Source: Burkholderiaceae bacterium (lineage in GTDB: Bacteria > Pseudomonadota > Gammaproteobacteria > Burkholderiales > Burkholderiaceae_E). Taken from it: 64,000 nucleotides of DNA. Of the stretch, positions 21,435-53,630 are shown in pieces. The position numbers and the translations under genes are program-made. The DNA lies in the NCBI GenBank assembly GCA_035628395.1, contig DASPJX010000204.1:5747-69746 (forward strand), in the 5' to 3' direction. Positions within the stretch are counted from its first letter, which is position 1; every line of letters begins with the position of its first letter. Below the pieces are notes generated by a model. The model was not told the DNA's origin. It was given only the letters and a program-made list of their open reading frames with translations, and searched no databases.

Positions 21435-22874
21435 TCACAGCAGCGGCGACGCGAGCTGCGCCGCGTTCTCCAGCATCCGGCGCCGGAACGGCCGCGCCCG
21501 CCACGCGCCGAGCTCGAGCGGCTCGCAGGCCTCGAGGTAGCGGCGCCCGAGCGCGAGCAGCTCCTCGGCGAACGGCCGGTCGTAGATCAGCATCGACAGC
21601 TCGAAGTTCAGGTGGAAGCTGCGCAGGTCGAAGTTGACCGTGCCGAACACCGACACCTCGCGGTCGATCACCATGCTCTTCGTGTGCAGCAGCCCGCCCC
21701 GGAAGCGCTCGATCCGGACGCCCGCGGTCAGCAGCTCGTCGAAGTACGACGCGCTCGCGTGCTGCACGAGCCGCGAGTCGCTCTGCCAGGGCAGCAGCAG
21801 CACGACCTCCACGCCCCGGCGCGCCGCCGAGCTGAGCGCGCCGACCACCCCCTCGCCGGGCGCGAAGTACGGCGTCGTCAGCACGAGCTCGCGCCGCGCC
21901 GCGTGGATCGCGGTCAGGATCACCGACTCGACGTGCTGGAACGCGAAGCCCGGCCCCGACGGATAGGCCTGCAGCGCCACCGGCCCGGCCACCGGCCCGT
22001 GCCCGACCCGGCGGTCGTCGCGCAGCCGCGGCCCCTCCTGCAGCACCGCCATCGCGTTCGTGACCGCCCCGAGCAGCGCGCAGCTCGGCCCCTGGATGCG
22101 GACCATCGCGTCGATCCACTGGCCGACGCCCGCGTGCCGCTTGAAGTGGCGCGGATCGGCGAGGTTGAAGCTGCCGGTCCAGGCGACGTGGTCGTCGAAC
22201 ACCGCGATCTTGCGGTGGTTGCGCAGGTCCGCGCGCGCGACCGCCATCCGCAGCGCGCTCGCCGGCAGCACCACGACCACCTCGATGCCCGCCGCGCGCA
22301 TCCGGCCGATCGCCCGGCCCTGGACGAACGGCCGGCTGCCGAGCCCGTCCATCAGCGCGAGCACCCTCACGCCGCGCGCGGCCGCGCGGATCAGCGCGTC
22401 GACGAGCTCGTCGACGCGGCCGCCCTCGTGCCAGATGTAGAACTCGAGCGAGCAGCGCTCGACGCAGGCGTCGACGTCCTCGATCAGCCGCCCGAGGATG
22501 CCGTCGGCGTCGTCGAGCAGCTCGACGCGGTGGCCGCGCATCACCGGGATCGCGCCGAGCGACTGCGCGAGGCGCGCGACCGGCTCGCCGACCGGCCCGA
22601 CGTCGGCGGGGTCGAGCCGCGCGTCGGACGCGAGCCGGTCGAAGTGCCGGGCGAGCGCCGCGCGCTCGGCCTCGGCGCGCTCGATCCAGCGCCGGCCGAG
22701 CCGGCGCTCGCCGATCATCACGTAGAGCACGAGCCCGCCGACCGGCACGAGCAGCACCAGCAGGATCCAGGCCATCGACACGCCCGGCGGGTTGCGCCGC
22801 GCGAGGATGCGCAGGGTCACCGCGACGAAGACCGCCGCGTGGGCCAGCGCGAGGAGCAGCACCTGCATCCGCAT
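21435..22874 (-). CDS. cls: Cardiolipin synthase (phospholipase D superfamily)
   Basis: Track ORF of 479 aa with two N-terminal TM helices and two HKD motifs (NHRKIAVFDD and LHTKSMVIDR). Confidence 0.9.
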   Translation of the reverse strand: MRMQVLLLALAHAAVFVAVTLRILARRNPPGVSMAWILLVLLVPVGGLVLYVMIGERRLGRRWIERAEAERAALARHFDRLASDARLDPADVGPVGEPVARLAQSLGAIPVMRGHRVELLDDADGILGRLIEDVDACVERCSLEFYIWHEGGRVDELVDALIRAAARGVRVLALMDGLGSRPFVQGRAIGRMRAAGIEVVVVLPASALRMAVARADLRNHRKIAVFDDHVAWTGSFNLADPRHFKRHAGVGQWIDAMVRIQGPSCALLGAVTNAMAVLQEGPRLRDDRRVGHGPVAGPVALQAYPSGPGFAFQHVESVILTAIHAARRELVLTTPYFAPGEGVVGALSSAARRGVEVVLLLPWQSDSRLVQHASASYFDELLTAGVRIERFRGGLLHTKSMVIDREVSVFGTVNFDLRSFHLNFELSMLIYDRPFAEELLALGRRYLEACEPLELGAWRARPFRRRMLENAAQLASPLL

Positions 22875-22977
22875 CGCGGTGCAGTCTAAGCGAAACGGCC
22901 GGGCGGTTCGACGCGGCCCGACCGTTCCCGGCAGGGGGTCTCGCGACGGGGCCCGCCGCGGGAACGATAATCGGGCG

Positions 22978-23331
22978 ATGGCGAGCGACGGGCATCCCCG
23001 GCACGACGATCGCGGCGCTCCCCCGGCCGGGGGGCACGGCCGCGCCCACCCGCACGGCCGGGGGCGCGGCCACGGCCACGAGCACGGGCACGGGCGCGAC
23101 CTTGGGGACGGTCACGGCCGCGGACATGGCCACGGTCAGGGGCAAGGTCACGAGCACGGGCGTGGTCACGAGCCCGAACGTGGTCACGAGCCCGGGCGTG
23201 GTCAGGAGCACGGGCATGGTCACGACCACGGCCACGACTACGGTCACGGTCACGACCACGGCCACCCTGGCCACGACCACGGCCACGGCCTGCTCGGCGC
23301 GCACGTCCACGCGCCGCCCGACACCCACGGC
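22978..23331 (+). repeat. Low-complexity His/Gly(/Asp/Glu/Arg)-rich coding repeat (GHGH-type) forming the CDF N-terminal tail
   Basis: I count 31 His in the first 117 residues (for example GHGHEHGHG, GHGHDHGHDYGHGHDHGHPGHDHGHG). The DNA shows reiterated cacggc/cacgac/ggtcac units. Confidence 0.85.
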
Positions 23332-24219
23332 CGCGCGTTCCTCCTCGGCATCCTGCTGAACGCCGGCTTCGTGCTCCTCGAGGTCGTCGCCGGGCTGTGG
23401 TCGGGCTCGCTCGCGCTGCTGTCCGATGCCGGCCACAACCTCGGCGACGTGCTCGGGCTGGCGCTCGCCTGGGCCGGCGCCTGGGCGTCGGCGCGCGCGC
23501 CGACCGCGCGCTACACCTGGGGCTGGCGGCGGGCCGCGCTGCTCGCGGCGCTGGCCAACGCGGCGCTGCTGGTCGCCGCGGTCGGCGCGATCGCCTGGGA
23601 GGCGGTCGGGCGGCTGGGCGATCCGTCGCCGGTCGACGGCGCCGTCGTGATCGGCGTCGCGGCCGCCGGCATCGCGGTCAACGGATTCACCGCCTGGCTG
23701 TTCGTGCGCGGCCGCGACGACGTGAACGTGCGCGGCGCGTTCCTGCACATGGTCGCCGACGCGGCCGTGTCGGCGGGCGTGGTCGTCGCCGGCCTCGTCG
23801 TCGCGCTCACCGGCTGGCGGATCGTCGATCCGCTGATCGGCCTCGCGATCGCCGCGCTGGTCGGCTGGAGCACGGTGTCGCTCGGCCGGCAGGCGCTCGC
23901 GCTCGCGCTGGACGCGGTGCCGCCCGGCATCGACCCCGGCGAGGTCGACCGCGCGCTGCGCGGGCTGCCGGGCGTCGACGGCCTGCACGACCTGCACGTC
24001 TGGCCGCTCGGCACGCGCGGCGCGGCGATGAGCGCCCACCTCGAGATGCGGACCGCCCCGGGCGACGGCTTCCTCGCCGACGCCCGCGCGCTGCTCGCCG
24101 CCCGCTTCGGCATCGAGCACGTCACGCTGCAGGTGGAGACCGGCGCGGGCTGCCCGCAGGACTGCGCCCGCCCGCGCGAAGCCGCCGTCGCGCGGCGCCG
24201 GGACGTCGCGCGGCGCTAG
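22978..24219 (+). CDS. Cation diffusion facilitator (CzcD/ZitB-like) metal efflux transporter with an extended His-rich N-terminus
   Basis: In-frame part of track ORF 22792..24219, starting at ATG 22978. CDF signatures GSLALLSDAGHNLGDV and FLHMVADAAVS, plus a C-terminal cytoplasmic domain (HDLHVWPL). The portion upstream of 22978 overlaps the cls 5' end. Confidence 0.85.
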   Translation: MASDGHPRHDDRGAPPAGGHGRAHPHGRGRGHGHEHGHGRDLGDGHGRGHGHGQGQGHEHGRGHEPERGHEPGRGQEHGHGHDHGHDYGHGHDHGHPGHDHGHGLLGAHVHAPPDTHGRAFLLGILLNAGFVLLEVVAGLWSGSLALLSDAGHNLGDVLGLALAWAGAWASARAPTARYTWGWRRAALLAALANAALLVAAVGAIAWEAVGRLGDPSPVDGAVVIGVAAAGIAVNGFTAWLFVRGRDDVNVRGAFLHMVADAAVSAGVVVAGLVVALTGWRIVDPLIGLAIAALVGWSTVSLGRQALALALDAVPPGIDPGEVDRALRGLPGVDGLHDLHVWPLGTRGAAMSAHLEMRTAPGDGFLADARALLAARFGIEHVTLQVETGAGCPQDCARPREAAVARRRDVARR

Positions 24220-51486: not shown

Positions 51487-52422
51487 TCAGCGGCCGGTCG
51501 CGATCCGGAACAGTCCGCGCGCCGCGCACTCGGCGTCGGCGCGCACGACGCGCGCCGGCAGCGCGGCCCGCGGCCCGCTCGCGCGCAGCACGTCCCAGGC
51601 GCGCTCGTAGAGGCTCGCGAGCGCGGGCGCGCCCACCAGCACGAGGCCGCGCGCGACGTCGTCGGCGAACGGACCCTCGACGGCCTGGCGCAGCTCGGTG
51701 CCGAGCAGCCAGCCCGACAGGCGCGCGCGTTCGGCGGCGCCGTCCGCCCCCGCGCCGACCACGCGCGCGCGGAAGCCGAACAGCCGGTTCAGCCAGCGCG
51801 CGTCCGCGCCGGGCTCGAGCGCCGACGCGACGCCCTCGTCGAACGCGCGCTCGTCGAGCGTCCCCGGCGCGCCGAAGGCCTTCGCGAGGCTGCCGTGCGT
51901 GCCGAGCAGGTCGTACAGCTCGCCGGTGAACCAGGTCGCGAAGCGCTCGATCGTGCCGCCGCGCAGCGCGAGCCACTTGGCGTGCGTGCCCGGCATGCAC
52001 AGCAGCCCGTCCGCGAGACCGGTGCCGAGCGCCTGAGTCTCCTCGCCGCGCAGCACGTCGGGTCCGGGCGCGCGCAGCCCGCCGACCACGGCGAGCGGAC
52101 GACCGAGCGAGGTCGGCACCCTCGTCAGCCGCCCGCGGATCGCGTCGACGCCGGCCGGCAGGTCGAGGTACGGCGCCTCGACCCACGCCCCCCGCGCGCC
52201 GACCATCCCGCAGGCGATCATCGGCGCGCCCGGATGCGCGGCCGCCCAGTCGCCGACGAGGGCCGCGAGCACCGCGTCGAAGCGCTCGCGCGGCAGGCCG
52301 ATCGCGCCCTCGTCGCCCGCGCGCCGCTCGACGATCGCGCCGCCGGCGTCGAGCCGCCATGCGCGCACGCGCGTGGAGCCCCAGTCGATCGCGATCACGC
52401 CCTCGGCGGCGTCCGTGTCCAT
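51487..52422 (-). CDS. dgoK: 2-dehydro-3-deoxygalactonokinase family protein
   Basis: Track ORF 51487..52518. I place the start at ATG 52422 (MDTDAAEGVIAIDWGSTRVRAW), which has GAGGAGAG upstream. IDWGST..R and CMPGTHAKW are typical of the DgoK family. The upstream 32 codons run into the repeat array. Confidence 0.75.
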   Translation of the reverse strand: MDTDAAEGVIAIDWGSTRVRAWRLDAGGAIVERRAGDEGAIGLPRERFDAVLAALVGDWAAAHPGAPMIACGMVGARGAWVEAPYLDLPAGVDAIRGRLTRVPTSLGRPLAVVGGLRAPGPDVLRGEETQALGTGLADGLLCMPGTHAKWLALRGGTIERFATWFTGELYDLLGTHGSLAKAFGAPGTLDERAFDEGVASALEPGADARWLNRLFGFRARVVGAGADGAAERARLSGWLLGTELRQAVEGPFADDVARGLVLVGAPALASLYERAWDVLRASGPRAALPARVVRADAECAARGLFRIATGR

Positions 52423-52501
52423 GCGGTCTCTCCTCGTCGTCGCGGCCCGCGATGGTAGCGTCCGCGGGCGAGCCCCGCAGCGCGGCGCGGCGCGGCGCGG
52501 C

Positions 52502-52706
52502 GATCGGATCGGCGGCACGGGACTGGTGCGGATCGGCTACACGGCACGAGGTCCGATCGGCCGCGCCGCACGGATTCGGATCGGCGGCGCGGCAGAGGCT
52601 CGGATCGGCGGCACGGCACGGCACGCGATCGGATCGGATCGGATCGGCGGCACGGTACGGGGTCGGATCGCCGGCACGAGACGGCACGCGCGTCGCGCGC
52701 GATCGG
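52502..52706. repeat. Intergenic degenerate tandem repeat array with a 24-bp period (core GGATCGGCGGCACGG + about 9 variable nt), about 8-9 copies, plus an internal (GATCG)x4 run; extremely GATC-dense
   Basis: The GATCGG cores start at 52507, 52531, 52555, 52579, 52603 and 52627 (exact 24-bp phase). After a 15-nt GATCG-pentamer expansion they continue at 52642, 52666 and 52701. There are twelve GATC tetramers in about 200 bp. The array lies between the divergent dgoK (start 52422) and eamA-like (start 52782) genes. Confidence 0.85.
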
Positions 52707-52781
52707 ACCGGCGGCCTCGGCACCGCGGGTTGACACGCGCGCGCGACGCGCTTCGAATCGGGCGATGGAAGGAGCCTCGCG

Positions 52782-53630
52782 TTGAGCTGGGAGGTCACGC
52801 TCGCCGTGCTCGCGGCGGCGGTCGTGCACGCGGGCTGGAACGCGATGGTCAAGCGCGGCGGCGATCCGCTCTTCGAGACCGCGCTGATCCACGGCTGGGT
52901 CGCGCTGCCGGCCGCGATCGCGCTGCCCTGGCTGCCGCCGCCGGGACCGGTGGCCGCCGCGTGCCTCGTCGCGTCCACCGCCGTGCACTGCCTGTACTAC
53001 CACGCGCTCGCGGCCGCGTACCGGCACGGCGACCTGAGCCTCGCCTATCCCGTCATGCGCGGCAGCGCGCCGATGCTGACCGCGCTGCTCGCCGGGATCG
53101 CGCTCGGCGAGTGGCCGGGCGCGTGGGGCTGGGCCGGCATCGCGGCCGTCTGCGGCGGCGTGCTCGCGATCGGGCTCGCGCGCGCGCGCGGCGTCGATCC
53201 GGCGGCGCGTCGCCGTTCCATCGGATGGGCGCTGCTCACCGCCGCGACGATCGTCGCGTACACGCTGATCGACTCGCACGGTGCGCGCCACGCGCCCTCG
53301 GCGTGGTCGTACGTCGCGTGGCTCGCGGCCGTCGAGGGCGCGGCGATCGCGGCGATCGTGCTCGCGCGGCACGGTCGCCCGTTCGTCGACTACGCGCGTG
53401 CGCGCGGCGCCTCGCCGATGGCGGCCGGCGTCGCCGCGGTCGGGGGCTACGGCGTCGCGCTCTGGGCGATGACGCTCGCGCCGATCGCGCTGGTCGCGGC
53501 GCTGCGCGAGACCTCGGTGCTGTTCGCGCTGGTGATCGCGCGGCTCGCGCTCGGCGAACGCTTCGGGCCGCTGCGCTGGGCGGGCGCCGCGTCGATCCTC
53601 GCGGGCATCGCGCTGCTGCGGCTCGCGTGA
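52782..53630 (+). CDS. EamA/DMT-family membrane transporter
   Basis: Track ORF of 282 aa, about 10 TM, with a two-EamA-repeat architecture. TTG start with GGAG 7 nt upstream. Confidence 0.8.
   Translation: MSWEVTLAVLAAAVVHAGWNAMVKRGGDPLFETALIHGWVALPAAIALPWLPPPGPVAAACLVASTAVHCLYYHALAAAYRHGDLSLAYPVMRGSAPMLTALLAGIALGEWPGAWGWAGIAAVCGGVLAIGLARARGVDPAARRRSIGWALLTAATIVAYTLIDSHGARHAPSAWSYVAWLAAVEGAAIAAIVLARHGRPFVDYARARGASPMAAGVAAVGGYGVALWAMTLAPIALVAALRETSVLFALVIARLALGERFGPLRWAGAASILAGIALLRLA

Follow-up and report, generated by a model that had tools for sequence, protein, structure and literature searches.

The intergenic region between the divergent genes dgoK and eamA contained a tandem array that is best described as a minisatellite, a kind of element that is already known. 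We consider it probable that this species-specific, non-coding array was born by slippage and is nearly neutral, with no dedicated sequence-specific function. The window, a stretch of 64,000 nucleotides, corresponded to positions 5747-69746 of contig C204 of the assembly G000 (4.0 Mb, 405 contigs, 74.3% GC, 93% complete). The gene dgoK, encoding 2-dehydro-3-deoxygalactonokinase (51487-52422, minus strand; PF05035, E=2.5e-72), and the EamA-family transporter gene eamA (52782-53630, plus strand; PF00892, E=1.3e-16) were separated by 359 nt. The TTG start of eamA, which was kept in the relatives, was preceded on the plus strand by the ribosome-binding site GGAAGGAG at 52767-52774. The whole array occupied 52476-52729. 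Its dgoK-proximal edge was formed by a (CGCGG)x5.4 pentamer microsatellite (52476-52502; TRF period 5, 95% matches), followed by five 24-bp units (52504-52626) that were recovered by TRF at period 24, as a repeat family with 24-bp spacing and in the unit table. The GGATCGGCGGCACGG cores of these five units lay at 52506, 52530, 52554, 52578, and 52602, and TRF also detected (GGCAC)x3 inside the block (52610-52625). A (GATCG)x4 pentamer run (52627-52646; TRF period 5, 100% matches) shifted the register by 15 nt. Two more 24-bp units (52641-52688; TRF period 24 at 52639-52684) had their cores at 52641 and 52665 and were taken in by a 63-bp higher-order duplication (52571-52690; TRF period 63, 84% matches). 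The array closed with a degenerate tail (52689-52729) that held the last GATC (52701) and the relic core CCGGCGGCCTCGGCAC.

The earlier note had described 8-9 copies of a strictly phased 24-bp unit in this region. The array was real, with a 24-bp period of 4.8-6 copies, 72% matches and scores of 103-118 by TRF and an autocorrelation peak at lag 24 (z=6.6). The phase was also strict at six GATC sites, was interrupted by the (GATCG)x4 run and was then resumed as described; the copy number, however, came to about 7 complete units with 1-2 further degenerate copies and not to 8-9 clean ones. TRF and autocorrelation thus both found head-to-tail copies of a unit within the size range of about 10-100 bp that characterizes minisatellites. 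The strongest autocorrelation peak was at lag 5 (z=8.4), with further peaks at 29, 48, and 63. Because the lag 5 peak exceeded that at lag 24, the 24-mer was regarded as a higher-order unit whose basis is a degenerate pentamer repeat.

The array was absent from all 26 species of the genus searched, eleven of which carried dgoK at 70-76% protein identity (best DgoK, 76%). Two metagenome scans yielded nothing closer, with one match resembling the genome G024 and having no array. The same chromosomal synteny occurred in congeners without the array. A set of 12 related loci, from the eleven congeners and one metagenome contig, had dgoK and eamA as divergent neighbours throughout and shared the architecture GATGGTA - spacer - TTGACA - N17/18 - TnnnAT (mostly TCGAAT) - 23 nt - eamA start. 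The GATGGTA box was found in 12/12 of these loci; where its distance to the dgoK start was checked, it came to about 26-30 nt. In the window the box lay at 52451-52457 on the minus strand, read TACCATC in the direction of dgoK and preceded the dgoK ATG by about 30 nt; it may represent a -10-like element of the dgoK promoter. On the plus strand, TTGACA - 17 nt - TCGAAT (52730-52758), separated by 23 nt from the TTG start of eamA and with the same boxes and spacing in the 12 loci, is the putative core promoter of eamA. A strict sigma-70 scan of the intergenic region called no promoter because the TCGAAT -10 box has no A at position 2; both promoter assignments are therefore based on conservation only. 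The array ended directly upstream of the putative eamA -35 box, and the inter-promoter spacer measured 272 nt in the window (52458-52729) versus 28-93 nt in the 12 related loci. The array was therefore an expansion inside the sole length-variable segment of the region, upstream of both putative core promoters.

The spacers of the relatives contained candidate seeds of the array, namely CGGCGGCACGG followed by (CACGG)x4 in the locus L014 and GGCGGCACGG in L021, and G(G/A)CAC(G)CCGCG directly abutted TTGACA in most congeners. Most congeners also carried an inverted repeat, GACAC-N11-13-GTGTC, over the eamA -35 and -10 boxes (TTGACAC...GGTGTCGAAT; L012-L021, L097, and L100 examined), whose position suggests a candidate operator. 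The window had lost the right half of this repeat; instead, a repeat search found a perfect 14-bp inverted repeat (52688-52701/52738-52751) bracketing the putative -35 box. Downstream of ccmH in the congener L020 (G020:C203), a small tandem repeat of GAGTCCTCCTCGC in about 3 copies was observed between ccmH and dgoK, which indicated that the formation of short arrays in relatives extends to other junctions of the syntenic block.

The abutment of G(G/A)CAC(G)CCGCG on TTGACA is also what would be expected if an ancestral promoter-proximal GGCACG element, lying beside the eamA -35 box and upstream of the dgoK promoter, had been amplified into about eight sites bound by a transcription factor or nucleoid protein. 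Such a platform would co-regulate or insulate the dgoK and eamA promoters, and the location of the array upstream of both is consistent with it, but the shared motif was only 6 nt long in a context of 75% GC. The earlier note had likewise proposed an iterated binding-site array, and had described the unit as a conserved core plus about 9 variable nucleotides. The core was indeed the less variable part, with mismatches at 9/105 positions in the 15-nt core versus 20/63 in the 9-nt spacer (Fisher p=2e-4). The position-wise dispersion of the array (variance/mean 1.38, p about 0.1) was no stronger than in the other arrays of the genome, and the core-versus-spacer unevenness was generic among them. 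Exact matches to the 15-nt core numbered three in the genome, all inside the dgoK-eamA array; elsewhere the core with 1-2 mismatches appeared as scattered singletons. With at most one mismatch, 7/21 of the matches outside the array were in non-coding DNA, a mild enrichment (p=0.004) that would favor a binding site, but these seven were unrelated singletons without a common gene context, unlike the recurrence of a regulon. A period of 24 bp corresponds to 2.3 helical turns and sets successive units about 103 degrees apart round the helix; successive sites would therefore point to different sides of the helix. No regulator gene adjoined the locus, whose neighbours were HU, flavin reductase, and ccm genes, and the congeners manage with their short spacers and without the array. 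Taken together, these results argue against the binding-site array, and a regulator platform at this locus is considered unlikely.

The unit did not belong to a wider family. Its consensus was no closer to any other array of the genome than shuffled controls were, and a search of 185,579 species representatives with a two-unit pattern returned 26 unrelated single matches, none of which was an array. Two of the 26 had extra GGATCGG copies, one in a Gly-rich coding repeat and the other in a hairpin. A dispersed REP/BIME-like element, which the earlier note had named among the findings that would overturn its reading, was rejected: the genome-wide 15-mer scan with 0-2 mismatches found the exact core confined to the array and only singletons outside it, and fold z-scores of -0.57 and +0.33 indicated no stable hairpin. 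The array was also not a CRISPR array, in agreement with the earlier note, as the period was only 24 nt, there were no unique repeat-length spacers, and the 9-nt variable parts shared the consensus CACGGnnTC. An iteron or origin array, with phasing of about 21-22 bp beside rep, dnaA or other origin features, did not fit a period of 24 bp and the neighbours dgoK, eamA, the ccm genes, and HU.

Twelve GATC tetramers started at 52502, 52507, 52531, 52555, 52579, 52603, 52627, 52632, 52637, 52642, 52666, and 52701, exactly at the positions first described. This density of 12 per 200 bp was the maximum of the window and tied the genome maximum with one other locus. The statement that well under one GATC would be expected was true for the mononucleotide composition only, since the real background of 9.4-9.7 per kb (9.7 genome-wide; 7.4 in non-coding DNA) gave about 1.9 per 200 bp. 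Under a second-order Markov model the genome-wide observed/expected ratio of GATC was 1.01, neither enriched nor avoided. The tetramer was present in the unit of 24/175 non-coding arrays, compared with about 13% expected by chance from the intergenic density. Two other non-coding arrays of the genome had GATC-bearing 18-bp units, GATCGGATCGGCGACGTG with about 10 copies and 12 GATC per 200 bp at C210:7100-7330, and CGCGTCACGACGGATCGC with 14 copies at C239:7432-7688. Because these arrays matched the dgoK-eamA array in GATC density, or nearly so, GATC-dense arrays were not unique to the dgoK locus. The amplified unit happens to contain GATC, and the saturation would therefore be a by-product of its amplification; local GATC density can arise trivially in this manner.

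Clusters of GATC occur at enterobacterial oriC and at Dam-dependent switches such as pap and agn43. The array resembles them in its high local GATC density, and the earlier note had raised a methylation-dense epigenetic switch, provided that the host has a GATC methyltransferase or restriction system; a restriction-related GATC cluster was weighed together with it. Unlike those systems, the locus is flanked by dgoK and eamA and not by replication or pilus genes, and its GATCs simply reflect the copying of a single repeat unit. The genome contained no match to the Dam/DpnM class (D12) of methyltransferases (PF02086) and none to m5C methyltransferases (PF00145), an absence that is not absolute because the genome is 93% complete; PF01555 (N6_N4_Mtase) matched a single fragment at 23.9 bits, below the family cut-off. 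With GATC neither enriched nor avoided in the genome, present in array units at the chance rate, and already lost at 52701 in a sister strain, methylation-dependent switching at this locus appears extremely unlikely.

Codon-position analysis supported the earlier statement that the array is non-coding. The GC content of the array was flat (0.75-0.79) over codon positions in all six frames, whereas the flanking genes had a GC3 of 0.96 (0.80/0.59/0.96 at the three codon positions of dgoK), and a coding repeat was ruled out on this basis. The frame continuous with dgoK contained a stop, and a 124-aa ORF in the array region had no Pfam match. A transcribed element, whether a GGA-rich sponge RNA, a structured leader or a small repeat peptide, would draw on the recurrence of GGAUCGG 8 or more times and on the open frames on both strands, the latter being found everywhere at 75% GC. 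No frame, however, had a genic GC3, both putative promoters point away from the array, an Rfam search of the array gave no match at E<=1, and RNA folding was no better than in shuffled sequences on either strand (z-scores as above). CsrA was not found in the genome, and a sponge RNA of the CsrB/RsmZ type was rejected on the combined absence of CsrA, of an Rfam match, and of excess structure. A transcribed function was accordingly judged very improbable. The G-quadruplex motifs in the array were of the two-tetrad type only, with none of the GGG type.

An independent ENA metagenome assembly (L028) was 99.6% identical to the window over 6.85 kb and, as the one sister assembly compared, had an equal number of 24-bp units. 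Five substitutions and a 5-nt deletion fell within the 33 bp of 52671-52703, where the GATC at 52701 was lost, compared with 16 substitutions in the other 6.6 kb (flank divergence, 0.24%). This clustering at the distal end of the array reflects a hotspot either of mutation or of assembly error, with the error in one of the assemblies. The Logan contig L027 (L102, SRR7003765; cf. L101) was rejected as an array-less strain variant since it was a chimera with an organism of 68% GC. It departed from the window sequence at 52502 and joined dgoK to a GFA-family gene of that organism via a shared low-complexity CCCCGCAGCGCGG..GCGGCG stretch; in the ENA assembly, the GFA gene adjoined DUF3035.

Phase variation in bacteria is known to arise from repeats near promoters, among other routes, and surface-structure genes are its classical targets. 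A contingency locus, in which 24-bp units or GATCG pentamers are often gained or lost and the resulting promoter geometry tunes the expression of dgoK and eamA, would be in line with the tandem structure, with its perfect pentamer runs, and with the 5-nt indel and the cluster of substitutions that separate the window from the sister strain. The identical unit count in the two available assemblies speaks against it, as do the flanking genes, which encode a sugar-acid kinase and a transporter of the EamA family. The units were only about 72% alike, which lowers slippage rates, and the array lay upstream of both -35 boxes, so that the -35/-10 spacing would stay unaltered. The tuning of the two promoters by a variable-number array, as offered in the earlier note, therefore found no support in the sole near-identical strain available, and a contingency locus is quite improbable. 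The promoter-upstream tracts that modulate transcription in contingency loci, of which Haemophilus offers an example (PMC12721329), resemble the array as tandem repeats in a promoter region, here between divergent genes; such tracts are near-perfect repeats of 1-7 nt with demonstrated high-frequency length change, whereas the dgoK-eamA array has a diverged 24-nt unit upstream of both -35 boxes and showed no length variation against one sister strain.

Tandem arrays were abundant across the genome, a feature that was missed in the first reading. With non-redundant TRF calls of period at least 9, at least 4 copies, and a score of at least 80, the assembly contained 242 arrays (60 per Mb), of which 175 were non-coding, and the dgoK-eamA array ranked 131st by score. 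Contig ends held 84 of the 242, which suggests that the arrays break the assembly. A re-implemented SATFIND-like rule gave 98 satellites, or 24.5 per Mb, and the dgoK-eamA array fell outside its regularity rule. Reference bacteria have a median of 0-3 satellites per Mb, and only 18/119 exceed 4 per Mb (PMC6749651). The large contigs of the genome carried 4.2 arrays per 100 kb. Of eight further genomes, each sampled over 29-100 kb, six congeners and a member of another family had 0-2 arrays per 100 kb, and the congener G001 had 3 arrays in just 29 kb. Half of the internal non-coding arrays had a period that was a multiple of 3, with 15, 18, and 24 the commonest. In the window itself, an 18-bp x 12.5 tandem array at 23067-23288 was observed to code for the His-rich N-terminal region (HGHGHEHG...) of a cation-diffusion-facilitator-like transporter (ORF 22792-24219, plus strand).

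By a crude, heuristic GC3-based gene caller, on which the placement statistics rest, convergent intergenic regions had more than their share of arrays (36% of arrays vs 16% of intergenic bp) and divergent ones less (13% vs 34%). A separate count placed thirteen arrays in divergent intergenic regions. Being rare in divergent and common in convergent regions, the arrays as a class are not promoter elements, and their placement fits arrays that arise everywhere and survive best where they are least harmful. The array density of about 25-60 per Mb, well above that in the 29-100 kb samples of most congeners examined, together with the convergent 3' intergenic preference, could also point to a lineage-specific and still-active seeding of locus-specific minisatellites, which here would have turned the GGCACG element into an eight-site platform insulating or co-regulating both promoters. 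We regard this as rather unlikely. If true, the arrays would not be junk but either a class of rapidly evolving cis-architecture not described before or the trace left by an unusual defect in replication or repair.

For the nearly neutral minisatellite that we prefer, the seeds would have been the local CGGCGGCACGG element and pentamer microsatellites of the CGCGG, CACGG, and GATCG types. Growth by replication slippage and unequal exchange would have proceeded stepwise, from a 5-nt sub-period to 24-nt units and then to the duplication of a 63-nt block. The expansion would have taken place where a change in length was tolerated, in the spacer between the back-to-back core promoters of dgoK and eamA. 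Its one likely consequence would be architectural, an extra distance of about 180-240 bp between the divergent promoters. The array would thus be one instance of a genome-wide propensity to form locus-specific minisatellites. Three observations weigh against this explanation. The lower variability of the core could reflect constraint, an argument weakened by the units not being independent and by the similar unevenness common in other arrays of the genome. The position of the array between two promoters is a minority case that could be tolerated for a reason. Finally, the identical unit number in one sister strain gave no sign of rapid slippage.

The array shares several features with known bacterial minisatellite and VNTR loci. 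The tracts of Burkholderia mallei and B. pseudomallei (PMC1574311, PMC6749651) and the mycobacterial loci (PMC12817950) are likewise head-to-tail, GC-rich, non-coding, and intergenic, with locus-specific units of tens of bp that are species-specific and local mutation hotspots. Burkholderia satellites derive from shorter microsatellite seeds (PMC6749651). Unlike VNTR loci, the array showed no copy-number polymorphism, the defining "V", against the single sister strain, its units were fairly diverged, and its lineage is uncultured. As in other satellite-rich prokaryotic genomes, the satellites were many, unique, and unrelated, with short repeat lengths (PMC6749651). Subirana and Messeguer (2019) gave unique satellites no special significance and traced their birth to replication anomalies (PMC6749651); the genome studied here lies far above the median in that survey by either count.

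The locus itself matters little, and the tempting story of an epigenetic GATC switch or an iteron-like array is removed as unsupported. The alignment of the related loci is modestly useful, as it defines two conserved boxes of the putative core promoters of dgoK and eamA and shows that the spacer between them tolerates lengths of 28 to 272 nt. The more interesting lead is the genome-wide minisatellite load, about ten times that of typical bacteria and above that of the sampled congeners, which has implications for metagenome-assembled genome quality and for the ways in which repeats are born in high-GC bacteria.
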